Shown: in pieces, positions 1-35,100 of the stretch
Position numbering within the stretch: the first letter of the stretch is position 1
Layout of the letters: each line of letters begins with the position of its first letter
Source: Lytechinus pictus
Lineage: Eukaryota
Reading direction: 5' to 3'
DNA length: 64,000 nucleotides
Assembly (NCBI RefSeq): GCF_037042905.1
Contig: NC_087245.1
Coordinates: 35,032,001-35,096,000, forward strand
Position numbers and translations under genes: made by a program
Notes under the pieces: model-generated
The model's database searches: none
Seen by the model: only the letters and a program-made list of their open reading frames with translations
What the model was told of the DNA's origin: nothing

Positions 1-125
1 AATAACTTATTTTAAATTAGAATATCTGCCGCAGTCTCTTTCCAAGATGTCATATTCATGATTTTGGTGTCCGAGCTAGACATACGGTTTAGTGTTCGTA
101 TAGGTCAATTGTTCAAATGTTCAAA

Positions 126-3100
126 TTAGTTCTGACCAAATGTCGGCTGTGGGGCGGGGGTCCTTGTCATCCATGGCTGCCATTGCTGGAATTGTCCCGC
201 GTCCCACGCAGGCCTGGAGATAAACGAAGGCATTTCATGAGGTATACGAACCTGCTGCTGTCCTCTCGGTAGGCCGGCATCCCATGACCAGGGGTCTGCT
301 TGATGCATCATCCTCTGGTGTGGTTGTGTATGCGGGTAGTACAGCCCTGGCTGTCCATTCATCCTCGGGAGCTCAGTTTGCACCATGTTGACATTGGGGT
401 CCCGTCGCCATTGCTGAGGCTCACCAAGCTGAGTATAGGTCAGAACCGGCGGAGGCTGTCTCCTGCGTGGTGGGTTCCGACGATCCTGCTGCGGAGGGCT
501 ACAGTCTCCTGAGTCGTAGAGGTCAGCATCCTGTGAAGAAAAGAAAGTGGGAGGTGGTGGTGGTGGTGGTGGTGGTAGGAAAGGTGGCATTGGGACAGGT
601 GGGATTGGGGCAGGGGGAGGTGGAGGTATGTTAGCAGGATGAGGTAAGGGTGCTTGAGGTGTGCCTTGCTGGTTATCATCAGCAATCCTGCTGTCTGGTG
701 TTGGCTGCAATGGATACCTTGGCTCAAGTCGAGATGGGGGCTGAGGTGGAGGTGGCGAAGCTGGTGGTGATGCAATGTGTGGATGAACAGGAATAAGCGT
801 GACTTCTTCATCATCCGAGTCACCACTTTCGTCTCTCATCTCTGCTGGGGAGGCCTGTGGTAGTGCCCGAGGTATTCGTCTCTGCCTGTCTCCGCTTGGC
901 TGATCCTGCTGAACTCGCAATCCCAAGTAATCACAGGGCAACAACATATTGCGATGGAGCACTCTAACTCTACCTTGACCGATCTCAGGACAGACTTCAT
1001 ATACAGGGATGTCTGGAGAAAGACGCCGTTTCACGATATGAACTTGCTTCTCCCAGTATGACCGCAATTTTGAGGGCCCTTGCTGTGGTACCATATTTCT
1101 CACCAGTACCCTATCACCTTGCTCTAAGGGGAGTGGATGTAGTCCCTTGTCTCTGGTTTTCTTTGTAGCTTCTGCCTTGGCCTGCGATGTATGCTTTGCC
1201 AGGTCATAGGCTTCCCTCATGGCTGTTTTCCATCTCTGAGCATATGTCTTTTGGTCACCAGTTGTGGAGTGTTCTTCATTCAGTCCGAATGCTAAGTCGA
1301 TTGGTAGCCTTGGTGTATGACCAAACATCAGGAAGGCTGGGGCATAGCCAGTCGCCTCGTTTCGAGTAGAATTGTAGGCGTGGACTACTTTAAGTAGGTG
1401 CTCCTTCCAGTTTGACTTTTGCTCCACGGTAAGCGTCCTCAACATCGAAAGGAGTGTCCTGTTGAAACGCTCAGCTTTTCCATTCCCTTGGGGGTGATAG
1501 GGAGTTGTCCTTGAATTCTGCACCCCTGATAGCTGCTGCAGCCGGTGGAATAACCTATTCTCAAACTCGCCTCCTTGATCATGGAGTATCCGGCGGGGAA
1601 AACCGAATCTAAGTACAAAATCATTAAAGATTCTGTCAGCTGCAGTTTGGCCAGACTTATTCCTCGTGGGATATGCTTGAGCATACCTTGTAAAATGATC
1701 AACCACAACAAGTATATACTCATAACCACCTTTACTGGTTTCCAGGTGTACAAAGTCTATGGAGATGAGCTTTAGGGGCTCAGATGTCACGATTGGTACC
1801 ATTGGAACTCTAATCTGTCGGTTAGGTTTACGCTGGATGAGACAGCTACATTCATGATGGATGAAGTGTTCCACATCTTTCTGCATGTTTGGCCAGTAGA
1901 ACCTTTGCCTTGCTAAATCGAGTACTCGAGCTACACCAAGATGACCCATGTTTACATGCAGATCCTTGAGCACTCGCATCCGGTAGCATGGAGGTAGGAC
2001 GATTTGTCTTCTAGTTGGTGTTCTACGATGGAGGATACCATCTTGCCCTAACTCCAGTTTCTTCAACTCTCGCAAGAGGGCTCTCTCTTCACTAGAAGCA
2101 GACCTCCAACATGTGGGGGTTGGAGAGTTGTCCTGTTCTTTCAGTTTGATGATCTTTCCAAGCACACGGTCATCATGCTGAGCCTTGGCGAGTTCTTCCT
2201 TGGATACTTCTTGGATTGGGGATGAGCTATCGTCCAAACCCTCAGCCATGGCAATATCCGCTGTAAGGCTGGCTACTAGTGGAAGGGTTTCCTGAGCTTC
2301 ATGCACTTGTGTCACTGCTACACATATACTGGAAGCTGGCGATTGTTCTGTGCATTCGTCGATGTATGTCTCTATGTTCAGAGGCATCCTTGACAGCGTA
2401 TCTGCATCAGCGTTGGCATGGCCTGGGCGGTATTTCACTGTGAAGTTGAAGTCAGCAAGCTCTGATACCCATCTTTGCCCAGTTGCATTCAACTTTGCGG
2501 TAGACATCATGTAGGTCAGCGGATTGTTATCTGTGTAGACAAGGAAAGAGGGAGCATAGAATAGGTAGTCGCGGAACTTGTCACATACTGACCACTTCAG
2601 GGCTAGAAATTCCAATTTGCCAGAGTGCAAATTATAATTCCGCTCTGCCGGTGTAAGGGTGCGGGATGCATAGGCGATCACCCGTAACTTTCCATCTTTG
2701 CGCTGGTACAAGACTGCTCCAAGACCTTCCTGTGATGCATCTGTGTGTAACACGAATGGCTGTGAGAAATCTGGAAAAGCCATAACGGGTGGTTGGACCA
2801 AATGATCGATTAGCATCTCCACTCTCTCTTGGTGAAGTTGTGTCCATGTTACAGGAGTGCGGGAAGAAGCCTGGTGGTGTTTCTTAGATGCCTGTTTGTT
2901 AGATTTCTTCTTCTTCTTGGTTCCTCCTGAGCTGACGTCTGTTGTTAAAAGGTTGTACATGGGTTTTGCCATCTTTGAGAAATCTGGTATATACCGACGG
3001 TAATAGCCGAGTAGACCCATGATTTTCCTCACGTCTCCAACGGTGGCTGGTTTCTTTTCCTTCAAAGCCAGTACTGCAGTTATGTCGGCCGGGTTTGGTC

Positions 3101-3317
3101 GATGGCCCTCAGCTGAAACAAGGCGTCCCAGGTAGTTAACCTCTTCCTGGAAAAGATGACATTTGGCAGGCCGTAGCTTCATTCCATGTTTTTGCACTGT
3201 CTGAAGGATTGTTCTGAACCGAGAAACATGTTCCTCAAACGTCTTACTGTAGACAAGAATGTCATCCAGGTATGTGACACATATTTCGTTGTTGAGACCC
3301 TCTAGACAAGATTCCAT
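126..3317 (-). CDS. pol: Gypsy Pol, C-terminal part (RT palm/thumb, RNase H, integrase, Pro-rich tail), separated from the N-terminal part by a frameshift
   Basis: Motifs: YLDD (RT); LHTDAS...EFLAL...YTDN (RNase H); HVNMGH...CSC (IN zinc finger); SIDF...HDQG...AERFN (IN DDE). Stop at 126-128. Confidence 0.93.
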   Translation of the reverse strand: MESCLEGLNNEICVTYLDDILVYSKTFEEHVSRFRTILQTVQKHGMKLRPAKCHLFQEEVNYLGRLVSAEGHRPNPADITAVLALKEKKPATVGDVRKIMGLLGYYRRYIPDFSKMAKPMYNLLTTDVSSGGTKKKKKSNKQASKKHHQASSRTPVTWTQLHQERVEMLIDHLVQPPVMAFPDFSQPFVLHTDASQEGLGAVLYQRKDGKLRVIAYASRTLTPAERNYNLHSGKLEFLALKWSVCDKFRDYLFYAPSFLVYTDNNPLTYMMSTAKLNATGQRWVSELADFNFTVKYRPGHANADADTLSRMPLNIETYIDECTEQSPASSICVAVTQVHEAQETLPLVASLTADIAMAEGLDDSSSPIQEVSKEELAKAQHDDRVLGKIIKLKEQDNSPTPTCWRSASSEERALLRELKKLELGQDGILHRRTPTRRQIVLPPCYRMRVLKDLHVNMGHLGVARVLDLARQRFYWPNMQKDVEHFIHHECSCLIQRKPNRQIRVPMVPIVTSEPLKLISIDFVHLETSKGGYEYILVVVDHFTRYAQAYPTRNKSGQTAADRIFNDFVLRFGFPRRILHDQGGEFENRLFHRLQQLSGVQNSRTTPYHPQGNGKAERFNRTLLSMLRTLTVEQKSNWKEHLLKVVHAYNSTRNEATGYAPAFLMFGHTPRLPIDLAFGLNEEHSTTGDQKTYAQRWKTAMREAYDLAKHTSQAKAEATKKTRDKGLHPLPLEQGDRVLVRNMVPQQGPSKLRSYWEKQVHIVKRRLSPDIPVYEVCPEIGQGRVRVLHRNMLLPCDYLGLRVQQDQPSGDRQRRIPRALPQASPAEMRDESGDSDDEEVTLIPVHPHIASPPASPPPPQPPSRLEPRYPLQPTPDSRIADDNQQGTPQAPLPHPANIPPPPPAPIPPVPMPPFLPPPPPPPPPTFFSSQDADLYDSGDCSPPQQDRRNPPRRRQPPPVLTYTQLGEPQQWRRDPNVNMVQTELPRMNGQPGLYYPHTQPHQRMMHQADPWSWDAGLPRGQQQVRIPHEMPSFISRPAWDAGQFQQWQPWMTRTPAPQPTFGQN

Positions 3318-4858
3318 CTTTGGAAAGCAGCCGGAGCGTTTTTCAAGCCGAAAGGAATCCTCACCCATTCGTACAATCCCCAAGGTGTAATGAAGGCAGT
3401 GAGGGGACGGCTGGCCTCATCCATAAAACCTTGGTGGTAGGCTTTACCCTGGTCCAGCGTTGAAAACCACCGATTGCCATCTAAAGTGTCCAATGTGTCT
3501 TGGATTCGGGGTATTGGCTGGCGATCGGCCATGGTCCTCTGATTAAGTTGGCGATAGTCCACACACAATCGCAAAGTCCCATCCTTCTTACGCACGCACA
3601 CTATTGGAGATGAGTAAGCAGATTTTGACTTTGCAATCCAGCCTCGGCTAATCAGGTCTCGTAGATATTCACGCACTTCCTTCATCAGGGGTGGAGGGAC
3701 CGCCATGTATGTCTTCTGGACCGGTGTATTGTCAGTCAGTGTAAGATGCATCTGTAATGATTGGATACACCCCATGTCTTGTTCATTCTTGACAAATGCA
3801 GCGCTTTCTTCCTTCAGCATCGCCTCCACTCCTGCTTTCTGGCCGTCATCCAGATGGGACAAGTCGACTGATGGGGCCCATTTCTCAGTTAGCAGGCTGT
3901 CAGCAGATGTAACAGACACCTCGGCGACATGCGCCTTCATGGTTGGGTGTGGTCTGCCCTCCTGGAGCAACTCTGCTGGTAATACAGAGCGCAGTGCAGT
4001 TAGTTTCCCCAAGCATGAATACGATGGTAAGGTGATACTGCACTTCCTGTCGTTGGTGATTGGGGTGGATATCTTCATGCGTCTCCCAGCCTTGAGGTCG
4101 ACAGGTGTTGACTCGATGCTCAACCCGTCGGGAAGGACATGAAGGGGGTCGGCTTCCAACAGGACAGTGGTTGAGTCGGCGAGGTTGAGGCGGACATTGC
4201 AGACAATCATTCGAGTCTGTCCAGGGTTGATTGTAATGGGATGTCTGCCCATCAGGACACTGCACATATCCTCTCCTTCATGGCCCTTCAGAATAGCAGT
4301 GAGCGCATTGATTTTCTGCCAATGAGATTTAGGGAGGATACGATTAAGGGATATCTTGGCATCATTCTTGGAGTCTTCCTTGATGAGTTCCTTGATAACA
4401 TTGTAACCGATGATCGGGTGCCTCATTGCTTGATTGGTTACGAGGACAGGAACGGTGATGGCTGGTTTCTGTTCACGCCTTGGTATTCTCAACTGCAGCT
4501 TCACCCATCCTTCATATGAGACGACTGTATCATTCACTGCAGCCACCTGCAAAGTCTCCTCTCCATCTAGGATTGCTGAAATGGGTAGGACTTGGGTTTT
4601 GGGTATGTAGGTTTTGGGTATGTACTGTCGCAGCCAATCTAAGGAAATTATTGAGACTTGTGCTCCTGTGTCCCACAAGACTTCAACATGCGTATCATTC
4701 AGCACCAAAGATACAAGGCATTGTTTTCCAATAAGTTTTATCATTCGCGTCCTCGTCTTGGGGTTTATTGTAGGTGTTGTCGAGTTGAGGGTAGGTCGGG
4801 ACTTTGATGGATCGGAGGTTACTGGTTGTCCCTCCCAAGTAACCCTACCCCGTTTCCC
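3302..4858 (-). CDS. pol: Gypsy Pol, N-terminal part (aspartic protease, linker, RT fingers), entered from gag by -1 frameshift
   Basis: LWDTGA protease motif, LRLCVDYRQLN, and PFGLKNAPAAFQR. The frame then stops (WNLV*) while MESCL...YLDD continues in another frame at 3317. Confidence 0.92.
   Translation of the reverse strand, partial: GKRGRVTWEGQPVTSDPSKSRPTLNSTTPTINPKTRTRMIKLIGKQCLVSLVLNDTHVEVLWDTGAQVSIISLDWLRQYIPKTYIPKTQVLPISAILDGEETLQVAAVNDTVVSYEGWVKLQLRIPRREQKPAITVPVLVTNQAMRHPIIGYNVIKELIKEDSKNDAKISLNRILPKSHWQKINALTAILKGHEGEDMCSVLMGRHPITINPGQTRMIVCNVRLNLADSTTVLLEADPLHVLPDGLSIESTPVDLKAGRRMKISTPITNDRKCSITLPSYSCLGKLTALRSVLPAELLQEGRPHPTMKAHVAEVSVTSADSLLTEKWAPSVDLSHLDDGQKAGVEAMLKEESAAFVKNEQDMGCIQSLQMHLTLTDNTPVQKTYMAVPPPLMKEVREYLRDLISRGWIAKSKSAYSSPIVCVRKKDGTLRLCVDYRQLNQRTMADRQPIPRIQDTLDTLDGNRWFSTLDQGKAYHQGFMDEASRPLTAFITPWGLYEWVRIPFGLKNAPAAFQRWNLV
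4798..4858 (-). promoter_or_regulatory. Programmed -1 ribosomal frameshift signal (G GGA AAC slippery heptamer plus downstream stem/pseudoknot)
   Basis: GGGAAAC at 4858-4852 is in gag frame and pol is in the -1 frame. A 7-nt spacer is followed by the stem GGTTACT/AGTAACC. Confidence 0.8.
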
Positions 4859-6132
4859 TGCCTCCTCATGTTGCATCCCCTGGCATAATGTTCAGAGCTT
4901 CCACACCGGAAACAGTGGCGGCAGCTCTCTCCTTGTCCTTGTTGCTGGCATGCCTCGCAGCCCCTCTCTCTCCTGCCAGATCTTGGTCCTCTCGGTTGAG
5001 CCATCAGAGCACTGAGCTCGGCCTTCACAATCTGTTGGATGCTGTTCGTCAGCTCTTTCAAGTTCAGTGCCTCTGTCTTACTCGTTTGCTTAGAGGTGGT
5101 CTCAGGCTTTGCCGGTTCTGCGATGGCAGCAGCAACTCGGGCTTGGCGAGGTTTCAGCTTTTGTTGACGCTCACTCTCATGTGCAACTGCAGTGGTCAAC
5201 ACCTCCAGAAGCTCCTCATCCGATACATCTTGTTGTAGAGTAGACCTGAGCTCATGCTGGATAACAGCATCCTGGAGACCGGTGGAGATTGCTCTCCACG
5301 CCATCTTGTGGACCTGCGTACTCCCATAGCAGATTGCTGCCCCCTTTTCCTCTGAGGCGAACAGTACCTTTTGTTTCAAGTCCAGGGTGCGGAGCACGAA
5401 GTCATGTGGCGATTCCTTTGGAACCTGCACAGCCGAGGATAACTCCTGGAAGAGTGCAGTAGCGTCCCTCTCCCTAAAATGGGATCGCAGGAGGCGACGC
5501 AACAGTGGCAAGTCCAAATCACCTCGACCCTCCAAATAGCTCCGGAGCGAGAGCCCTGGATTCACAGCACGCACCACTGCTTCGGTGATCTCCTCAGCTG
5601 GAAATCCTTTTTTCAAGCCACTGTTAATCTGTCTTGCGAGGGAAACGAAAGAGAGTTTGTCCTTCTGGCTAGGCTCGCCAATCTGCCCCTGTATCCTAAA
5701 CTCCTTTCTCCACGTGACTGGAGTATGTGGCAGCTGGTTGGTCATCTTGAGGATGGGGGATCTCTGTGACGTGTCGTCTGCCTCTTCAGCTGGCTGGTCT
5801 GACTTTGGCTGGGTGGGTGGTTCCCTTGGAAGCTTAGTGGTCCTGGCCTTTACCTCAACCACATTCTCATCTCCATCTCTGTCCCCCTTTCCCAGGATCT
5901 TGGCCAAACCCTGCAACACTGATTTGCCTCCGTCCTCTGAATCCTCCAGCTCATCCCCATCTACGAAGCGTCTGACGACATGCTTCAGTCCTGCTCGCCC
6001 TTTCGACTTGGCCTTCCCCACGTCTTCCTCAGGTAGCTTGAGCTCCGCTGCCGCCTTTAGTAGCTGCTCCTCCGTGCTCGCTGACAATCTCTGCAGCACA
6101 TCGTCGATCAGCTCCTCAAATCCTGCCATCAT
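4819..6132 (-). CDS. gag: Gypsy Gag (capsid plus zinc-knuckle nucleocapsid)
   Basis: Open frame from the first ATG at 6132. Contains CFRCGSSEHYARGC (CX2CX4HX4C) and lies between the PBS and pol. Confidence 0.92.
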   Translation of the reverse strand: MMAGFEELIDDVLQRLSASTEEQLLKAAAELKLPEEDVGKAKSKGRAGLKHVVRRFVDGDELEDSEDGGKSVLQGLAKILGKGDRDGDENVVEVKARTTKLPREPPTQPKSDQPAEEADDTSQRSPILKMTNQLPHTPVTWRKEFRIQGQIGEPSQKDKLSFVSLARQINSGLKKGFPAEEITEAVVRAVNPGLSLRSYLEGRGDLDLPLLRRLLRSHFRERDATALFQELSSAVQVPKESPHDFVLRTLDLKQKVLFASEEKGAAICYGSTQVHKMAWRAISTGLQDAVIQHELRSTLQQDVSDEELLEVLTTAVAHESERQQKLKPRQARVAAAIAEPAKPETTSKQTSKTEALNLKELTNSIQQIVKAELSALMAQPRGPRSGRRERGCEACQQQGQGESCRHCFRCGSSEHYARGCNMRRQGNGVGLLGRDNQ

Positions 6133-6260
6133 AGATAGCTCCGGAATCGGCCTTCTTGTCAAGCTGTCTCTGGAATTGGGTAGGGCCTCGTCTAGGGCTG
6201 TTCGGAGATGTTGGAGTTGGGTGGAGTCGCTAGGGAGAACTCGTACACCATCTCAGCATC

Positions 6261-6278
6261 CTCCGGGCAGTGCCTCCA
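6261..6278 (-). promoter_or_regulatory. Primer-binding site, tRNA-Thr-like
   Basis: TGGAGGCACTGCCCGGAG begins 3 nt after the LTR-terminal CA. TGGAGGCAC is complementary to the 3' end of eukaryotic tRNA-Thr as I recall it; not checked against this genome's tRNAs. Confidence 0.7.
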
Positions 6279-6281
6279 AAA

Positions 6282-7184
6282 TGTAGCCCGCCTTGACCCT
6301 TTAAATGAAGAGAAAAGACAGACACGTGTTATTTCTTGGTAAAAGTAACAGTAGAATGCCCTTCTCACAAAGTGTGGTCAAACTCCTGCAGTATCTGGAC
6401 TCTTCGATTATGTTACAGGGGTAACCATCATTACCAATAGAGGGACTGCCAGGTGTGCTAATTAAAGGCCTGCTTGTACCTTTGTGTACTTTGTGGGCCT
6501 GCCCACACTCTGGTATATTGTAAACCTGGAAAGTACCATTGGTGATATAACATTTATCTTTTCTTTATCACTCTAAACAAACTCTTATTCTATCTACATG
6601 CTCCAATACTAAACTGGGGATAAACTTCCATAAGAATGTATAACAGGTCTGTACTTCATTCTATGAGAACCTTACAGACATAAACATTCAAAGTTTATGA
6701 TTTTGCCTACTATTCTTTGCATCAGAAAGTTCAAACCACAATGGAACTACATAATGTTCAATTAATAATACTCTTCCAATGTACTTCTTTTCTGGCATAG
6801 AAATCACAGTCAATCAACATCACTCTTCAACAATTAGTACTTCTTAGAACTCCTTCTACATCATATAGTCACTCACATAATCAATAACTTTTAACTGGCA
6901 TTAGTTAATATTCAACATCCAATCACACTCAACAATTCAATGATTATAATAACTTGAAAGATGAACCAAGCTTACCTTTAAATGAAGAGAAAAGACAGAC
7001 ACGTGTTATTTCTTGGTAAAAGTAACAGTAGAATGCCCTTCTCACAAAGTGTGGTCAAACTCCTGCAGTATCTGGACTCTTCGATTATGTTACAGGGGTA
7101 ACCATCATTACCAATAGAGGGACTGCCAGGTGTGCTAATTAAAGGCCTGCTTGTACCTTTGTGTACTTTGTGGGCCTGCCCACA
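6282..7184 (-). repeat. 5' LTR (TG...CA, 903 bp) with an internal 210-bp direct repeat (6298-6507 = 6975-7184)
   Basis: Starts TGTGGGC at 7184, ends GGGCTACA at 6282, and is followed by the PBS. The two 210-bp blocks appear identical. Confidence 0.82.
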
Positions 7185-7211
7185 GTAGTAGTAGTAGAAG
7201 TAGTAGTAGTA

Positions 7212-7242
<31 letters not shown>

Positions 7243-7271
7243 AAGTAGTAGAAGTAGTAGTAGTAGTAGTA
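7185..7271. repeat. (GTA)n microsatellite with GAA interruptions
   Basis: Read directly from the sequence. Confidence 0.97.
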
Positions 7272-8459
7272 ATTTCACAAACAGTCATGCACATCTTGGT
7301 CAGTTTGCAAATAAGGGAACCAGTGACGTCACCCACTCACTATTTCTTTTCTATCTAATTATGTGAAAATTGAATATCATTTTCATATTATAATGCAAAC
7401 AATGAAATATTGTGTAATTCGAAACACAATAGAAATATGAAGAGTTTAGTTGCAAAAGGGCTTAGGTCCACTTTGGACCATTCTGAGAAAAACCATGTTT
7501 TTTATTCTCACTTACTGCACTATTCTTATGAGAAACTAAATTGTCATGATGTACTACCCTATCATGTGAACATAAAATTGGGTATAAAAGAAATCTACCT
7601 GTCTTCAATTTTTTTCTATAAATTCTTTTAAAAATTATCATTGTGGACCTAAGCCATTTTGCAAGTAAACTGAAATGAATCCAATCTATTTTGATTAAAA
7701 AAGTGATTTTTCTTTGCCACTTTTTTTCACGTTTTCATATTAATTTCAAATTTTCTTTGTATTCAGCAAAGCGACTGAAAATTTAGAGGTTTTGAGACAG
7801 AAAACAATAAAATTTATGAACAATGGAACTAACACCTTTTGACAAATGAGCTCTTCAGAAGAGTTTGTTTGCAAAAGGGGTTAGGTCCACTCCAAGAAAA
7901 TCATTTTTTTTTTTATTCTCCTATATTGCATATTCTTATGCGAAACTAAATTTTCAAGATTCCCTACCATGACACATAAAATTGGGTATAAAAGAAATCT
8001 ACCTTTATTCATATTTCTTTAAATATTCTTTTCCAAAAAAATTCGGTGTGGACCTAATCCCTTTTGCAACTAAACTGAAATGGACCTAACCCCTTTTGAA
8101 AAAAAAGTGATTTTTCTTTGCCATTTTTGATCACTTTTAAATAGGAATTTCAACTTTTCTTTGGTATCATTTTATAGAGCTACTAAAAATCTATACATTG
8201 AGACCAAAAAATCAAATTTGATGAAAAATGGACCTAAGCCCTTTTGCAAGTGAGCTCTTCATATAGTAAATGACATCATGGACTCTCTAATTTGCACATC
8301 CCCATGTTCTACATAATATATAATTTGTGTAAAAAAATACAATTTAAAAAATCAAAGTTTTTGTTTTACATCTGATTTTGATGAAAATTTCATTGTTATA
8401 CATGTTTAATTTTTTCCCTTTTGATTCATATCAATTTTTCTTTGGTGTGAACTTCCCCT
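7272..8459. mobile_element. Right part of a Kolobok-type non-autonomous element, with a nested insertion
   Basis: Ends GTGAACTTCCCCT|TTAA. The body resembles the copies at 25938, 52828 and 60876; the left end is missing in this window. Confidence 0.7.
7439..8260. mobile_element. Head-to-tail dimer of ~410-bp TIR units (GAAGAG...CTCTTC), flanked by ATAT
   Basis: Unit 1 is 7439-7856 and unit 2 is 7858-8260. The outer ends form an imperfect ~30-bp TIR, with ATAT on both sides. Confidence 0.75.
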
Positions 8460-13213: not shown

Positions 13214-13901
13214 TAATAACAGTAATTAGCGCCATAATTGACCAAAAAGCGAGTTTCACAATTGAAGATTTGATTTTTTTCTCTAAAATTACAACCTAAA
13301 TATATATATGTTATCAATTAGAAATCACTTTAAAAAAAGGCTTTGCTCAATCACTACAAAATACACAACTACTTCATGCATTCGATAATCCCATGGTAAA
13401 TATATCAATTTGCACCAAAATGCAGGTTCCTAGCTGCCCCCCCCCCTAGCTCCATGGGCCCCACTGAATATGCCACTGTGTAGGTATATACTAAAGTTAC
13501 TTTATACAAAATTTTGTGAAAATAGGTAAATAGATTATATAATTACATAGACTGATGGATCTATTTTTTTATCTTTGTGGTGATCTTTTTTTTTTTTTTT
13601 GGGGGGGGGGCTTGATCTTTTTAGGGGAGTTGAACTGCCTCTGCGTGTCATATGCCTGAATATAGCCCCTTTTATTATCAAACCGTTTGTCAAATTCGAT
13701 CAGAATGTAGTTTGGATCTTATTTCTCTCTGGCCCTTTAACGATGCCGTAGTAAAACCCACTACTTTTGGCTGCATTTTTGGTATGCTAACTTCACGCGA
13801 TTTACAGCTTGAAAGCGCCATATTGGAATGTGAAATCTTTGTGTTCAACCGACGTTGTTCTTGTAATTTTTCACCTCTGAGAACAGAATAATTGAGCAAT
13901 T

Positions 13902-14160
13902 ATGGCAGGAACAGGTGCAAACAGTGTTCCTCTGGGAGCTTTGCATCCAGTCTTCAGTGGAGGAGGAAAATCATCTGGAAATGACTCGATGTTGAACGCT
14001 GCCCGTGAAGCAGCTGCGAGGGTGACTGCGAACATCCTGAAACGGGATCACGCCGGGATTGCCGGCCGACCAGCGCAGGCCCAGAGTACCGCTACCAGCG
14101 GACCTGTGTCGGCCGCTCATCACCCATTAACAATGCCCGGTCAGCGCCAAATCATTGAAC
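13902..14160 (+). CDS. SF1: SF1 exon 1 (coding part)
   Basis: [15 protein letters not shown]...; donor GTAAGA at 14161; phase 1. Confidence 0.9.
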
Positions 14161-17100
14161 GTAAGACACTAAGACGGCTTACTTTAGACAGTATGTTGGT
14201 ATGTTTAGCTATATTACCCAGGGCAGGGTGACCAGATTTCACAAAATGAAATACGCAGCCTAGATCTAGTAGTACTCAGTAGAATAGATTAAAAAAATAA
14301 TTATAGGCCCTACGCCTATAATAATACGGGACGACAAAAAAGATCAACAAAGAAGGCTACACAGTGAGTTAGAGTTAGACTTGTGAAAAAAATAAAGAAT
14401 TGGAAGGGAGGGTGATATGAAGGAGAGAAAGAAAGAAAAATTGAAAGGGAAAATGAAAGAAAAGGATGAAAAATTGAAAGAAAGAATAAAAAGAGAAAAA
14501 AAGGTTTCCGTCAATATTTGAATTGAATTTAGAAAGAAAGAAAAAGAAAGGACTTCGGGAAGATGAATAAATGTGTTGAAAGACAAAATGAAGGAGGAAA
14601 GAAAAAAGAAAGTTAGAAAAAAGGAGGAAAGAATGATGGAAAGAAAATTGTTTCCTTCATTCTTTTCTTTGAAAGAAACATAAAAAAAAACAGGAAGGGG
14701 CGAAGGAAGGGATGGAAAGAAAGAATAAGGGAAAAAATAAAATGAAAGAAAGGAAGAAAGAATTGAGGGAGGAGAGAATGAAAATAAGAGGGGGAAGAGA
14801 GAAAGAACGAAAAGAAAAATGAGAGCTAAGGGAGAAGGAAGCAAAGGAAAGAAGGCAGGTAAGACTAGAGAAAGAAAGGAAAATGAACAGAGAAAGGATC
14901 AGGACAGAAAGATAGGAAATACAGATTCATGTAAGATGGAACAAAAAAGGGCAGGCAGGAAGGATAGGACGAAGAAACGGGAAAAAAGTTCAAGCAACAA
15001 AAACAATCCAATCATCTAACAAAAATCATAATATTTGGTGTTTTTTAAATAAATTTGTATTAAAAAAAAATGTTTTAGAAATGAATAAAATTTCAAAGTG
15101 AAACATTTTCAACTTAATAATCAGAAGAAACATCGGGGCATCATACACAACAAGACTCAAAATGAAAGCTGAAACCATTAGATAAAAACTCTATAACTTG
15201 TTCCTCCGATTACATCTCCAAATCAGTAATCTGAGAATCCATAATATAATTATACAAATTTCCCGCCGATTTTGTTATTATTTTGGAAAACTGTTTATAA
15301 TGTCATTGTTTGCACCATTGAGAATCTGCTCCGATCCTACATGCCTAGCTAGTAGCCTGCCACACACAGGCAGGAGGCCAGTTCGTTTGCAATGCATTGC
15401 GTTTAGCAAGAAAATCACCGCAGAACTTGCAGAAGTTTAGTTATTGATTTTATTGTTGTTTCTGCTTCGTCATCTGTTGGTATTCGATGAAAATTTACCT
15501 TTTTAAAATGTATTAACTACATTTTGTTCAATATTCTGAAATACAGGACAAATAGGCGTCCCGGGAAGGGTTCATTGGGACGCCGGGACAAAGGAGCAAA
15601 ATACAGGACGATCCCGGGAAATACGGGATGTCTGGTCACCCTGATATTACCCAAAAATTAAAAGGCAAGACTTCCATATGTCCCCTCGTGCCTCGGCCCT
15701 CCACTAAAAATTTTAAAAAAAATATGGAGCTAATGTATGGACCATACTCCATACTAGCTCCATATTTTTTTTTTCAATTTTAAATTTTTAGTGGAGGGCC
15801 GAGGTGACATGGAAGTCTTGCCTTTTAATTTTTTGGTAATATAGCTAAACATGTCAACATATGGTATGAGAAAAGTTTAAAGCCTAACGTTTTGATCTAA
15901 AGTTTAACTTAAAGGTCAAGTCCACCCCAGAAAAACGTTGATTTGATTTTGAATAATCTAGGTTCTAAACATAAAAAATCAAACTAATGTTAGAGTAGAA
16001 TAATGCTAAAATGAACATCAAATTTCTTCAAAATCGGATGTAAAAATAAAAGTAAGAAAGTTATGGCATTTAAAATTTCGCTTAAATATTTTTCACAAAC
16101 AAAACAAGTGATATGCACTAACCTTGAGGACTTCGTGTTGATATTTTAAAACATTTTTACATATACTTCTTCATCACGAAGCCTTGAAACCCTTGCCATA
16201 GGCATATAAGCGAGACTTGTCAACAAAGATGGATTATCCTAGGAAATCCATCTTTGAAGATAGAAATCACGTAAATTTGTTTGATTCCATTTATCTATAC
16301 ACCTTCATACGCCTAATGGGTATGAAGGTGCAAAAAAAAGAGTTGATAAAAATGTGAAAAATGAGAGGTTTCTTACCAGACCGATCTCGTGTATATCCCT
16401 CGATCCATTCATAAACACCGCAAATACAATAAGCGTGACCCTTGAACTGCTTCCTTATGACGTACAGTACCTTCGATAAGGAATGTTACAAAATGCTGTT
16501 TTGAAGAACAATTTATAGATAAAAATTATTATTTAACAAATAATAAAATTTGAAACTTGATTATAAATAATTATAATTATAAATTATTAGTATAATAATA
16601 ATTATTTGTAATCAAGCTTCAAATTTGTTTATATCTGTGTTTATCAATGTACATGTAGCTCTGATGCAAGCATCTTCAAGTTGGCCAATGCAGCAGCAAC
16701 CAGAGACTTCTAAGCGTCGCAAACGGAGTCGATGGGGTGGAGAGGATGTCAAGGCTGCGCCAGGTGTGGCTACCGTTATCCCTTCAGGCCTGTCAAAGGA
16801 ACAAGAAACACAAGTCTTATGTGAGTATACCTTTTACATTATTCTGGCTTGAATGAAATTTCATCTATATCTTCAATGTCATTTTCCTCCATTCTAAATA
16901 TTTGATATTTTTCTCTTGCCATATTACTGCCCTGCAAAACAAAGAAAGACTGATATAAGAATCTGGTCTTCGTAAGTTAGCTTGGATTTTTATTTTGATC
17001 TTCATTCTCAATAGGTGAATGTCTTTGCTCTTTACTCAAGTTGTCCCAAGGTTATAATACACATGTTCTTGTATGTATTTTCAATTGGTATTTGGTATTT

Positions 17101-26100: not shown

Positions 26101-29100
26101 TCCTCATTGTCAAGTCATACAAAGATTAATTCCTCCCTGAACATGTGGAATTAGCATTGTTTAATACTATATTGTTCAGTCAAGTTGGTCCTTATTGTCA
26201 AATCTATAAAAAATGAAATATTGTATAATTCAAACAATAAAAAACAAAAGAAATAGTGAGTGATGGACATCATCGACTGAGTCACCAAGTTGTGCATATC
26301 ACTGTTTTGTGTAAAATAAGTGAAACCTTAAAATGTCATAACTTTCTTCTTTTACATCCGATTTTGATGAAATTTTCAGCACTATGCTAGTTAGATTTTT
26401 CTCTATTTATTGAAGTCAGCATTTTCCTGGGGTGGACTTGACCTTTAAGTATTAAGCCCTCAAACCAACCACAAGTCTTGCAGTGAATTGCAAGTTTGCA
26501 ATCAGTAGCTGGTCTGTTCCTTGCAAAGGAAACTAGATTTGCTGAAAATGAATTTAATACATTATTTCAAATATTTCAATCAAAGCTTGCAAGTGGCCTC
26601 AACTAATGTTCAAACGACTACCGATTCGGCTTTTTGAGTGAAGATAGCTGTTACCATGTAGGATATTGACGACAGATATTGATTGTGTACTATTTGCAGG
26701 CCACCTGTCCAGCGAGTGAGTGATCGGGTCATGATACCACAGGATCAGCATCCAGATATCAACTTTGTTGGCTTACTCATCGGACCTCGGTAAGTTCTTT
26801 GTCTTTATCCAGGGGCCCATTTCATAAAGCTGTTCGTAAGTTACGAATGACTTTACGCAAGACTGGTGATCCTTTTTTGTGCCAAATGATATCCCTATGT
26901 AAGTGATTTAGCGCCTAAGAACAGGTTTCAGTCGTGCGTAAAGTTGTGCGTAACTTTACGAACAGCTTTATGAAACACCACCGTAGTACAAGGCATCATA
27001 ATCAAGGTTCAGCTGTAAGATAATTAGTTTTTCTGATTTCTAAATGGAAAAAGCAAAAACTAAATATTGAGTGAAAATTGATTTTATTGTTGAGATATAA
27101 AACAGAAAATTGGTAATTTTTCAATATTTTGATTCAAGAACAAAACATGTAAAAACAGGAAAACAGAAAAACAGTTTACTTTAAAAATATATGGATCTAT
27201 TTCATGAAACTTGGCCATAATCACTGAACATTCTGTGAGATTTTCAGGTCACATGATAAAGGTCATGTAGTGTAGTAGTGTCATGTTGCTCTAATTGCAT
27301 GTCTGATGTCAGTAATGTACAATAAGTATTATTGAAAGAATCATGATCTAGAGAGACTAGCGTTTCTGACTCTCACCTTTCAATTATGAAAAGGTCAAAT
27401 GGGTATCAATTATGAAAGGGTTATATGGGTTTCAATTATGAAAGGGTCATATGGGTTTCAATTATGAAAGGGTCATATGGGTTTCAATTATGAAAAGGTC
27501 AAATGGGTATCAATTATGAAAGGGTTATATGGGTTTCAATTATGAAAGGGTCATATGGGTTTCAATTATGAAAGGGTCATATGGGTTTCAATTATGAAAG
27601 GGTCATATGGGTTTCAATTATGAAAGGGTCATATGGGTTTCCAATTATGAAAGGGTCATATGGGTTTCAATTATGAAAGGGTCAAATGGGTTTCAATTAT
27701 GAAAGGGTCATATGGGTTTCAATTATGAAAGGGTCATATGGGTTTCAATTATGAAAAGGTCAAATGGGTTTCAATTATGAAAGGGTCATATGGGTTTCAA
27801 TTATGAAAGGGTCAAATGGGTTTCAATTATGAAAGGGTCTCAATTATGAAAGGGTCATATGGGTTTCAATTATGAAAGGGTTATATGGGTTTCAATTATG
27901 AAAGGGTCATATGGGTTTCAATTATGAAAGGGTCATATGGGTTTCAATTATGAAAGGGTCATATGGGTTTCAATTATGAAAGGGTCATATGGGTTTCAAT
28001 CCCAGCAATGACATTTAATTCCCTTCAGAAAGGAATTTATCCACAGTTTGACCCAGGTTGATGTAAATGGAGACCTTGAAGGCATCATTCTTTGAAATGC
28101 TTGTGTGCTGTAAAGGGCTTTGGGGATAAGGCAAGGGTAATAATATCCAAGTCTTGAAGATGCTCATATGGATTTTATAATATGATATGTGCTATGTAAG
28201 AACTGTGTTTTATGATTATTTTTATAGTTCTTATTATTTCCTTTATATATTTTTCTTCCTCAGAGGTAATACCTTGAAGAAACTTGAGAAGGATACGACC
28301 ACCAAGATTATGATCCGCGGCAAGGGATCAGTGAAAGAGGGCAAGGTTGGGCGTAAAGATGGCCAGCCTTTACCAGGAGAAGATGAACCTCTCCATGCCC
28401 TTGTCACAGCCAACAATGCTGAGAGTGTCAAGAAAGCAGTCATTCAGGTGAACCCTACTCCCATGTAGTTTGCCATAAGAGAGGGGTATACAAGTTAGGA
28501 GGTTGTTATGATATGAAAGCTCCATGATCTGTTAATTTTGAACAGACCGAGTGACTTCTGTGATGATGGAACTAGACATGAAATTCTTTATACTGTGAAA
28601 CCTTGAAGAAACTGCTAAACTTGACTTTATGTAATTATGAGACCGGAACCTGTTTCGTAATCCCATAATCCTTATTAATTACAGATGCCAGAAATCAATA
28701 ACAAATATTCGCCTGGCCATCCAAATTTTAGGATTTCTGGGTCAGTAACACAAAGGTTAGTGATCAATCGTATGCTTGATTTTCACGATTGATTGTACAA
28801 CACAGTCAATGGAATCAATCGTAGAAAATTTTTCTACGATCATTGCTAATCTTTGTGTTACGGGCCCCAGAAGTACATGTAGCTTGTAATTTGGTATTCA
28901 TACCAAGCTTTTCGAAAATGTGACCGAGATTGTTGCCATGATGCCCCTTTTAAACGACGATTATTTCTTTGAAAAAACCAAGAGAGATAACTTCTTGATG
29001 AGGTTTTCACAATTAGTCTTCATGCCTTCTCTTTCTGAATTCTCTGCTCACTTTGGGACTGATTCATGTTCCGTATAATCTCCTCTGCTCAGACTAAGCT

Positions 29101-32100: not shown

Positions 32101-35100
32101 TGGAAATCACAAAATTTTTGGCTCGCGCTTCGCGCCCACATCATTTATTTTTTAGGAAGGCACTCACTTTGTTTTGGTTACAACTTGTGCTTATAATGTT
32201 CAATTTTCAGGTTTAAATGTCACAAATCTTCAGCTCGCGCTTTCCGCTCGCATCAAAGGTACACATTATGTTCTTGGTTTCAAACTGCTTAGAATATCCA
32301 GTTTTCAGGTTGAAATATTACAAATTTTCGGCTCGCCGCGCTTCGCATCAATTATTATTTATTAAGACACACAATTAAGTACTTGGGTTAAAAACGTGCT
32401 TAGAATGTCCAGTTTTCTGGTTGGAATATCGCGCTCGCGTCCATTCTTCAATTAGATGCACATCTTTTTCATAACAAAATTGCTCGGAATGTTTGATTTT
32501 CATGTCTTATTAGTCATGTTAGTACAAGCAATGTCTAGAATTTATAGCTCGCGATTTGCGCTCTTAACACCTCGCAAGAATGCTCTTTTAACAATAATTT
32601 GCGCGATTTGACCAAAAAGCGGCGAGTTTCACAACTTCAGATTTGAAAATGTTCAAACTGTTTGCTTGCTACGCTCGCTCCCGGAAAAATAAAGCCTAAA
32701 TAGATATTTTCTCAATCAGAAAAGACTTTAAAAAGGTTTTGCTCAATTTAATTACTACAAAACGCACAACTACTTAACACAGATGATAATCTCATGGTGA
32801 AAATATAAGTTTGCATAAAAAATGCAATCTTTTGCATATAAGTGCCTTTTTTCGCTTTGTCCCCCCCCCCCCAAAAAAAAAGAAAAAAAAAAAAAAATTG
32901 AAAATACGTTCCGTCGCCTATGATTCCGTCACCTATGGCACTCGCTGGTATTTGAATATATCATCATTTACACCCTCTCAAAGAAAGCAGACTTACTTTT
33001 GCCCTTTATTTTGCCCACAATGGAACTTACAGGAAAGCATATCAAACAGGATGCAAATGGAGGTCTATTCAGCCGGACGTTATTATACGCTTTGGAGTTT
33101 GGATTCTTGTTTGCCTAGAAAACGTAAAGTATTTCAAGAGTTTTTATATTTTCATTACATCTTTGTCCTTATTTCTCTATATCCGTAGCTCTACCATGTG
33201 CGTATTCGGGGGCGCCAAAATAGGGAGAAAAGGGAAGGAAAGAAAAGGGGTTGACGAATTGCTGTTTGACATGGGGGGGGGGTGGATGCGCCGAATTGAT
33301 GTTCAACCTAGAGTATGTATATAGCGGGTGCCGAATTTATGTTTTGCTTAGGGGCGCCGAATTGATGTTCGACCTAGGATGTGCCAAATTGATCTTCATC
33401 CTAGGGGGGGGGGGGCGAATTAATGTTTTACCTCGGGGCGCCGTATAGATGTTCGACATAGAGGCACCGAAGGGCACCGAAATGATGTTTAACCTTGGGG
33501 ATGGGGCGCCGAATAATTTTTTTCTATATACGGTTGTCGAGTTGCTGTTTGACATATAGGGGCGCCGAATTGATGTTCAACCTAGGGGGTGCCGAATGGA
33601 TATTCACCACACGCCAATTTGATATTTGTCTCGGTGCATCAAATTCAGGTTCAATTTACCTAGGGAGGGGAGGGGGTGCCAAACTCATGTTTGCTCCCAT
33701 CAATTACCAATCATGTTCATGATTACCAAAAGTGCCTAGAAAGTCCTAATTTTAGATCAGAATATAAAAACAAATTCATCCTACTCTTCGCATTAATTGT
33801 TTAGTAAGGTGGCGATCCTGTTCATGGTAAGATAAGTGCTTAGAATGTCTGACTTTGTATCAAAATATATAGATTTTTATTCAGCTCGCGCTTCGCGCTC
33901 GCATAAACTGTTTTGTTACTGATCATCCTTTTCATGATAACCGAAAATGCTTACTCAAATGTCCAAATTTTAGGTAAGAATATGAAAAAAATTTCATCTC
34001 GCTCTTTGCGGACGCATCAATGTTTAGTTAGATGACAATCCTGTTCATGATTACCAAAAGTGCTTAGAATGTCCACATTTTAGGTCAAAATATCAATCAC
34101 TTTTTAAGCTCGCGCTTCGCACTCGCACAAATTTACGAGGTCAGAATATCAAAAAATTTGAACTCGCGCTTAGCGCTCGCATTAATTATTTAGCTATATA
34201 CCCATCCTGTTCATGGTTATAAAAAGTGCTTATGATGTCCAGTGTTGGATTGGGAATTCAAAAATTGTCAGTTCGCACTTCGTGATCGCATAAAATGTTT
34301 TGTTACTGATCATCCTTTTCATGATAACCGAAAATGCTTACTCAAATGTCCAAATTTTAGGTAAGAATATGAAAAAAATTTCATCTCGCTCTTTGCGGAC
34401 GCATCAATGTTTAGTTAGATGACAATCCTGTTCATGATTACCAAAAGTGCTTAGAATGTCCACATTTTAGGTCAAAATATCAATCACTTTTTAAGCTCGC
34501 GCTTCGCACTCGCACAAATTTACGAGGTCAGAATATCAAAAAATTTGAACTCGCGCTTAGCGCTCGCATTAATTATTTAGCTATATACCCATCCTGTTCA
34601 TGGTTATAAAAAGTGCTTATGATGTCCAGTGTTGGATTGGGAATTCAAAAATTGTCAGTTCGCACTTCGTGATCGCATAAAATGTTGATAGATACTCATC
34701 CTGTTCTTGATTGCCAAAAGTGCTCATAGATTTTTTTCCCCTCAAATTTTAGGTCAGAATATAAAAAAAATTCAGCTCACGTTTCGCGCTCGTATCAATA
34801 ATAATTGTTTAAATAATTCATATACATATCATGTTCACGGTTGCAAAAAGCGTAGAATGTTTGATCGGAAAACAGATGAAAATATCCCCCTCCCCTATTG
34901 GCGAAAGCTGGATCTAGCCCCGGTTAAGAAATTACAGCTCCCGCACATAATTTTAGTATGGTCTACCACTCTGATGAAAAGTTGAACTAAATTGAAACCC
35001 CAAAACGCTTAAAAATTCTATGCTTTCTGGTCGCATTTATTCTTTTCAAGAAGTGGATACAACTTTGATCTTTTTTTACATGGACACACTATGGACACAT

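Follow-up and report, generated by a model that had tools for sequence, protein, structure and literature searches.

A candidate spliceosomal intron that may be rebuilt in the long terminal repeats of a clade of animal Gypsy elements

Introduction

According to the textbook view, an intron that is spliced from a template RNA is lost at retrotransposition. The long terminal repeat (LTR) described here raises the question of whether an intron could be spliced from an element's RNA and still be inherited by its next DNA copy. This LTR belongs to a Gypsy element on the minus strand of a 64,000-nt stretch of the Lytechinus pictus genome (NC_087245.1, positions 35,032,001 to 35,096,000). This whole stretch is called the window, and positions are counted from its first letter. 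The 903-bp LTR contains the same 210-bp sequence twice, with splice-site-like letters at the ends of the copies. A sequence-only reading had proposed that the family may cycle between long and short LTR forms through splicing and reverse transcription. We compared the LTR with contigs from sequencing runs, with related elements and with control LTRs. The object of interest is the long LTR of the clade; the 903-bp copy, a probable recombinant, exposed it.

Results

Organization of the element

The element has the features of Ty3/Gypsy retrotransposons: pol runs in the order reverse transcriptase (RT), RNase H, integrase, and a TG..CA LTR adjoins a primer-binding site (Table 1), which we take to resemble the 3′ end of tRNA-Thr. 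The polypurine tract expected before the 3′ LTR was seen for the family in one loose contig end of run X5, and for the relatives L002, L003 and L034. The pol of the window copy is broken by a frame change inside the RT. The gag-like frame matches no Pfam family; its product is 99% identical to a Lytechinus pictus protein and has homologues in other sea urchins and in fish. A 15-nt tandem duplication in the protease-like region (4595-4624) differs from the main contigs of all four runs compared below. Contigs of X13 and X15 omit 574 letters of the integrase tail region (window 529-1104), a deleted derivative in organism B. Elsewhere, the window holds a 26-bp minisatellite (27378-28000) and a 387-bp tandem duplication of 98% identity (33881-34686).

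Read on the minus strand, the LTR consists of a first copy of A (A1, 7184-6975), a 467-bp spacer S, a second copy (A2, 6507-6298) and 16 bp ending in CA. This order had already been read from the letters, and the comparison bears it out: A1 and A2 are identical at 210 of 210 positions, and the repeat extends in neither direction. A second copy of S is absent within the window, where the best side match is 32 nt at 84%. It had also been pointed out that no polypurine tract stands before A2. The full tract is indeed absent, yet the four letters that precede A2, AGAG, are the last four of the family's tract. Within A we distinguish a 5′ part and a 59-nt tail, E, which would be the first exon and the start of R. 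The E1 boundary was placed from a loose contig end of X15 at 6357 (+677) and from alignment to the E starts of the relatives. The second copy of the U3 part (6358-6507) is apparently special to this type of copy.

Table 1. Features of the element, in window positions
Feature	Position	Strand	Remarks
LTR of the Gypsy element	6282..7184	-	903 bp; TG at 7184, ends in CA
(TAC/AGT)n microsatellite of the host flank, next to the LTR's TG	7185..7271	.	29 trinucleotide units
A1, 5′ part	7035..7184	-	150 nt, starts TG; identical to 6358-6507; putative U3
E1, last 59 nt of A1	6976..7034	-	pyrimidine tract and AG right before the donor; putative first exon
Donor-like GTAAGC after AAG	6970..6975	-	8/9 consensus positions; kept in two organism B variants
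Spacer S, shortened here	6514..6974	-	from the 5′ part of a long intron-like segment in LTRs of the family; contigs of 4/4 runs
Join of S to A2	6508..6513	-	final four letters AGAG, as at the end of the family polypurine tract
A2, 5′ part	6358..6507	-	second copy of putative U3; no such duplicate in L003
E2, last 59 nt of A2	6299..6357	-	initiator-like CATTC start; ends in pyrimidine tract and AG (acceptor-like)
b, end of the LTR	6282..6298	-	terminal 17 nt, CA end; first G common to the repeat
Primer-binding site	6261..6278	-	18 nt starting TGG, 3 nt past the LTR
gag-like ORF	4819..6252	-	477 codons stop to stop; ATG at 6132; Cys/His motif near the end
pol, first frame	3302..4891	-	protease-like region (motif by eye) and N-terminal RT; RVT_1 1-132
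pol, second frame	126..3416	-	remaining RT, RNase H, integrase, proline-rich tail; RVT_1 134-202, RT_RNaseH, Integrase_H2C2, rve

The 903-bp LTR contains neither AATAAA nor ATTAAA. Position 6357, where E2 starts, is one of three initiator-like sites in A. In self-primed (Tf1-like) Gypsy elements a perfect pairing between the RNA 5′ end and the primer site is expected. Here the primer site (6278-6266) can pair with the LTR stretch 6450-6438 at 12 of 13 positions (5 of 500 shuffles); this match was first spotted by eye, and its 11-mer version pairs at 10 of 11 (61 of 500 shuffles). The LTR stretch lies upstream of the putative start site, and four relatives share another primer site. Folding of the short LTR with the primer site gave a z of -1.46, which is not significant, and neither Rfam matches nor tRNAs were found.

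Splice-site candidates and the regenerated short LTR

Splice sites were scored simply, from consensus motifs, with acceptors ranked by pyrimidine count. The donor AAG/GTAAGC, with its G at 6975, agrees with the consensus at 8 of 9 positions and is the best of the 71 GT in the LTR; 24 of the 2997 GT on the minus strand of the window score as well. By pyrimidine count the AG at 6300-6299 ranks second of 74 in the LTR and 29th of 3561 on the minus strand.

Removal of 6975-6299 (677 nt) leaves a sequence identical to 6507-6282, a complete 226-bp LTR, and the sequence-only reading had proposed that splicing would regenerate it exactly. The identity holds, but as evidence it carries no weight, since any deletion between the repeats yields the same product: all 210 equivalent 677-nt deletions give these 226 bp, and two of the 210 have GT..AG ends. 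We have thus discarded exact regeneration as an argument. Moreover, the 6976-to-6298 joint has the same letters as the end of unspliced A2, so that junction reads are blind to splicing.

The spacer and its joints in sequencing runs

Of 24 listed runs, 17 contain at least half of the words sampled from 6282-6974, a region in which the short LTR makes up just one third; in X1-X4 the share is 0.79-0.94. We compared contigs of two runs from organism A (X1, X5) and two from organism B (X13, X15) with window 1-6974. All four cover S, and X15 matches 6514-6749 at 99%. In organism B the joint between A and S occurs in two variants, with small indels on both sides and AAG/GTAAGC intact; its short side is 66 letters in X13, at low depth, and 30 letters in X15. 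The spacer is thus family sequence in two organisms, and not the unrelated DNA of a one-off rearrangement. Contigs of X1 and X5 also span the order gag, b, A; against the main contigs of the four runs the window copy differs at one letter of b (6294).

In three of the four runs S continues into other sequence, the exit lying at 6514 (X13, X15) or 6520 (X5), and a second S variant exits at 6795 (X1, X5). Behind 6511, a loose end of X5 carries a G-rich polypurine tract that leads into A and ends in AGAG, as do the letters before A2 in the window. In X15, one contig follows A as far as 6357, beyond which come 204 other letters, AT-rich where shown, with an AATAAA that ends 3 letters before the join. 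The contigs that continue past S, together with this loose end, indicate that S is the start of a longer family segment. From these contigs, the final ~60 nt of A can be preceded by something other than the 5′ part of A, and it seems that as a rule no more than these ~60 nt are duplicated. The sequence that enters them in X15 would be the far end of S; this putative second E of the sea-urchin family comes from one contig in one of the four runs, at 85% likeness and without a shown link to S.

The join of S to A2 is listed for X1 only (record 6, 6482-6824), with no difference over 343 letters and with 26-30 letters on the A side, below our 31-letter bridging threshold. The internal contig of X1 differs from the window by 17 other letters and 19 gap letters in 4693. 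The join is perfect although that contig differs, and is thus at least not peculiar to this assembly.

X1 also has a joint between 6394 and 6895 that connects early S with mid-A over a 4-letter overlap and may represent a second A-S-A form. It was rejected as a splice product: by eye, no register gives GT..AG. The end of S (..GTTTACA) was likewise considered as a separate LTR end, but the letters beyond it are common to organism B and so are not a flank. Finally, a duplicated A tail was considered from depth in X5, where contigs 96 and 120, which hold the tail, are deeper than contig 121, the 5′ part. The contig break is accounted for by a variant near 6326, parts cannot be ranked by contig depth, and X5 may be RNA; depth was not used as evidence.

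Related elements

Relatives found from the Gag alignment lie on animal-derived contigs inside two bacterial genome bins. Bin G001, which holds L002 and L003, has 278 pol matches and G550 has 20; these animal LTR-retrotransposon contigs are host contamination of reference genomes. Five clade members were recovered (L002, L003, L034, L035 and L130). In a quick tree of 31 kept rows, from which rows without a 500-column match were excluded, the window element, L002, L003, L034 and L035 form one clade with an SH-aLRT of 100. L130 comes from another bin and was placed by Gag only (38%); Gag identity of L003 and L130 to the window is 32-38%.

Both LTR ends are visible in L003 and L130, and both have the same order: E followed by GT, 1.7-2.2 kb, an identical E ending in a pyrimidine tract and CAG, 20-40 nt, and the primer site. 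In L003 a polypurine tract is followed by TG at 7702 and by E1 (7801-7884), whose pyrimidine tract and CAG are followed by GTAATA. At least 1065 nt then run to the contig end, which the contig start overlaps. E2 (832-916) precedes b and is identical to E1 in 84 of 85 columns, the GT..AG segment being about 1.7 kb. After a gap, the same contig carries a short LTR of 223 bp (1061-1283) in which E is joined straight to the 40-nt b. Its U3 differs from that of the long LTR at 5 of 199 positions, which argues that the short LTR is a real variant and not an assembler path. In L130, 61 nt ending in CAG are followed by GTATTG, 2175 nt, the same 61 nt (61/61), a 20-nt b and the primer site. The GT..AG segment measures 2236 nt, and as the contig starts inside E, E may be longer. 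Both are short-read bin contigs of collapsed repeats, which do not establish the order on one molecule; their junctions should be real, and the assembler may have helped the identity of E1 and E2 in L130.

The donor agrees with the U2 consensus at 8 of 9 positions in the window, 7 of 9 in L003 and 6 of 9 in L130; in these two relatives it is moderate (rank 4/90 in L003, 31/142 in L130). The acceptor ranks 2/74 in the window, 1/48 in L003, 2/93 in L130 and 1/17 in L002. In L002 it is strong and lies 27 nt before the end of an LTR of more than 760 nt that is 75% like that of L130. L035 has a weak acceptor (3/6) 31 nt before its LTR end. L034 has a 9/9 donor 46 nt from the LTR start, not preceded by a pyrimidine tract, and is a possible exception to the layout.

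AG/GT occurs at 0.002-0.006 per position in the LTRs of the window and the relatives. The duplicate ends exactly at AG/GT on one side and at AG/b on the other in three unrelated LTR sequences. The letters after the second copy are AC in L003, CA in L130 and GG in the window, and b has no GT start in the relatives. When E tails were compared between families, 9 of 10 pairs showed no greater likeness than shuffled sequences. Identity within a family combined with unlikeness between families calls for a process that homogenizes E. Close to the start of E, alignment of the window with the relatives reveals a GCCATTT-like motif beside initiator-like letters, followed by AATAAA in L002 and L035; canonical AATAAA is absent from L130 and from E of L003 and of the window. 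Start sites read from these motifs are suggestive and post hoc.

Control LTRs and searches

The layout was found in none of nine non-coding control stretches taken from other clades; in five of them the primer-site end was visible, and the bounds of the other four were guessed. Their longest exact repeats were 12, 13, 67, 16 and 22 nt, or below 12 nt; the 67-nt repeat has GT after one copy but no AG end. Good donors occur in LTRs without duplication (L036, L046, L069, L082), so that donors are a frequent feature of LTRs and, taken alone, weak evidence. As judged from these sequences, the mark of the clade is the duplication with exact splice-site ends. Two sister-clade elements have LTRs of 2.1-2.4 kb (L036, 8061-10188; L037, 10891-13264). 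These contain donor- and acceptor-like sites but lack a duplicated exon, and in both elements a long AT-rich leader precedes gag. L037 carries an extra 263-codon ORF (13599-14387) between the primer site and gag, and L079 a 266-codon ORF in a similar place.

Gag matches at E<=1e-8 were obtained in 2 of 380 genomes, with two further weak matches, and pol matches in 4 of 400, none of them close outside G001. The window's primer motif gave 11 matches. No further LTR contigs were found for L002, L034 and L035, and the viral contigs scanned contained no relatives. Among metagenome contigs, the sole match to the first letters of the LTR was an exact 24 nt at L001 8001-8024. It lies ~100 nt from an unrelated element with 361-bp repeats, shows no further likeness, and was dismissed as chance. 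The layout was not found described in the literature searched, where coverage of subscription papers and Repbase reports was thin.

Proposed replication cycle

We propose that the standard long LTR of this Gypsy clade would read U3, E, GT...(kilobases)...E-AG, b. Transcription would start at the first E, and the cap-proximal intron would be removed at the RNA 5′ end, leaving E-b and the primer site. At the RNA 3′ end, cleavage and polyadenylation would fall inside the second E, before the acceptor AG; the intron could then not be removed there and would stay. The pyrimidine tract near the LTR end, read here as part of an acceptor, would however fit a U-rich element downstream of a poly(A) site as well. 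Strong-stop DNA would be a copy of E-b with two landing sites. By landing on the second E it would produce U3-E-intron-E-b, overwriting E2 with the letters of E1 and so keeping both identical. By landing on the first E it would produce U3-E-b, an intron-less short LTR (226 bp here, 223 bp in L003). We give this cycle, read from the arrangement of the LTRs, a probability of about 0.6. Splicing with two landing sites accounts for the boundaries, the identity of E and the two LTR sizes. That a whole clade of animal Gypsy elements replicates from 5′-spliced RNA, rebuilding a kilobase-long spliceosomal intron in both LTRs at each cycle, is a wider claim, to which we give even odds.

In this view the 903-bp form combines a short LTR with a long one that breaks off 461 nt into its intron, the two being joined at the four matching letters AGAG. 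It is probably a recombinant that kept both donor and acceptor, and the join would have arisen most simply by a template switch during minus-strand synthesis. Two parts of the sequence-only reading are thereby revised. The 903-bp form was taken for the standard long LTR; its spacer is cut short, and the usual duplicate seems to comprise only the last ~60 nt of A. Moreover, short LTRs would come not from splicing alone but from the choice of landing site at the first strand transfer. The cycling between long and short forms that it suggested gains in part: both forms coexist in L003, and a duplication bounded by splice sites recurs in unrelated LTRs of the clade.

Alternative explanations

The same layout could be read without any splicing. 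The second E would then be the place where transcription starts; the poly(A) signal would lie in U3 shortly before it, an arrangement known from RSV and MMTV, and the pyrimidine tract would be a downstream poly(A) element. The role of the donor behind the first E would be limited to binding U1, which silences the poly(A) site there, and frequent recombination between co-packaged RNAs would keep the copies of E alike. The AATAAA just upstream of the 6357 join in X15 speaks for this explanation, as do the U3 poly(A) signals and the U1-mediated suppression described in PMC12789967, and no splicing was seen in the runs, all of which were contigs. However, it leaves unexplained why the duplicate ends exactly at AG/GT and AG/b in three unrelated LTR sequences, and why E is identical at 84/85 and 61/61 positions within families while differing between them. 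We therefore regard it as unlikely.

Two further explanations concern the 903-bp copy. The whole A-S-A-b could be the family's long LTR, from which splicing alone yields the 226-bp form. Its donor and acceptor are both good, X1-X4 contain most of the sampled words (0.79-0.94), and the perfect join in X1, together with the second S-to-A joint (6394 to 6895), leaves room for inherited A-S-A forms. That join, however, is seen in one of four runs, below the bridging threshold, and bears the polypurine-tract end AGAG; S continues into other sequence in three of the four runs, and L003 duplicates only the tail of A. These observations make a standard 903-bp LTR quite improbable. The window copy could also result from an accident at the DNA level: insertion of a short-LTR element into a solo LTR of the long type from the same family, a tandem of two elements of which the first was mostly deleted, or a local assembly error. 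AGAG could be what a deletion left of the polypurine tract, or could belong to a target site, and the element's other end lies left of the window. Against this stand the 210/210 identity of A1 and A2 and the join in X1, with no differences despite a differing internal contig and a short side of 26-30 letters. We consider such an accident a poor candidate; if it did occur, the template-switch origin falls while the layout of the clade stands.

Discussion

If splicing and rebuilding both take place, an LTR intron would be heritable despite being spliced, which would provide a concrete route for reverse transcriptase to make and to keep introns. The intron would keep the poly(A) site out of the RNA 5′ end, a new answer to the question of why transcripts would not be terminated by the 5′ LTR from which they start. 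Mis-landing would give rise to short LTRs, and the long and short classes within one family would be explained as two outcomes of one strand transfer. LTR finders will report only the short form.

For the Barthez clade of Ty3/Gypsy, three families are listed with LTRs of 259 to 1116 bp and Pol of 1563-1580 aa (PMC11117352, PMC4746887). The Pol frames of our relatives (1551-1584 aa) are close to these, and fish Gag homologues occur too; the comparison is one of size only, and the name Barthez is a lead for the clade. The word 'intron' is absent from PMC11117352.

The layout resembles the introns described by Hellsten et al. 2011 (PMC3265369), where duplication of an AG/GT-containing sequence can make a working intron, 6-16% spliced. 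In both, the duplicate gives a donor at the first copy and an acceptor at the second, and splicing restores the original letters; ordinary RT-PCR in that study cannot distinguish spliced from unspliced products. Those introns are wholly duplicated, with AG/GT at both ends. Here 467-2175 nt between the copies are unique; since most of the intron is unique sequence, it is not of that type. Theirs arose by a one-time DNA duplication in a host gene, whereas here reverse transcription would remake the structure at each cycle, with kilobases of unique sequence between the copies and with copies still identical in families that have diverged.

Split-intron retroviral vectors (Ismail et al. 2000, via PMC3182074) come close in principle, as an intron arises there when reverse transcription carries a splice site from one LTR to another. 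According to PMC3182074 they are engineered and one-way, with the acceptor outside the LTR, the packaging signal removed and no duplicated exon.

In retroviruses, strong-stop DNA is made on the 5′ end of the RNA and then transferred to the 3′ repeat; strand transfer proceeds via R, which can be as short as 15 nt, and cleavage occurs 15-23 nt after the hexamer (PMC12789967). As in HIV-1 and foamy viruses, strand transfer through R would rebuild the LTR, and a donor near the LTR affects poly(A) choice (PMC12789967). Packaged retroviral RNA must stay unspliced (PMC12789967), while here the spliced 5′ end would itself be the template. Finally, unlike the retroviral occlusion of the 5′ poly(A) site by U1 at the major donor, both donor and acceptor here lie inside the LTR.
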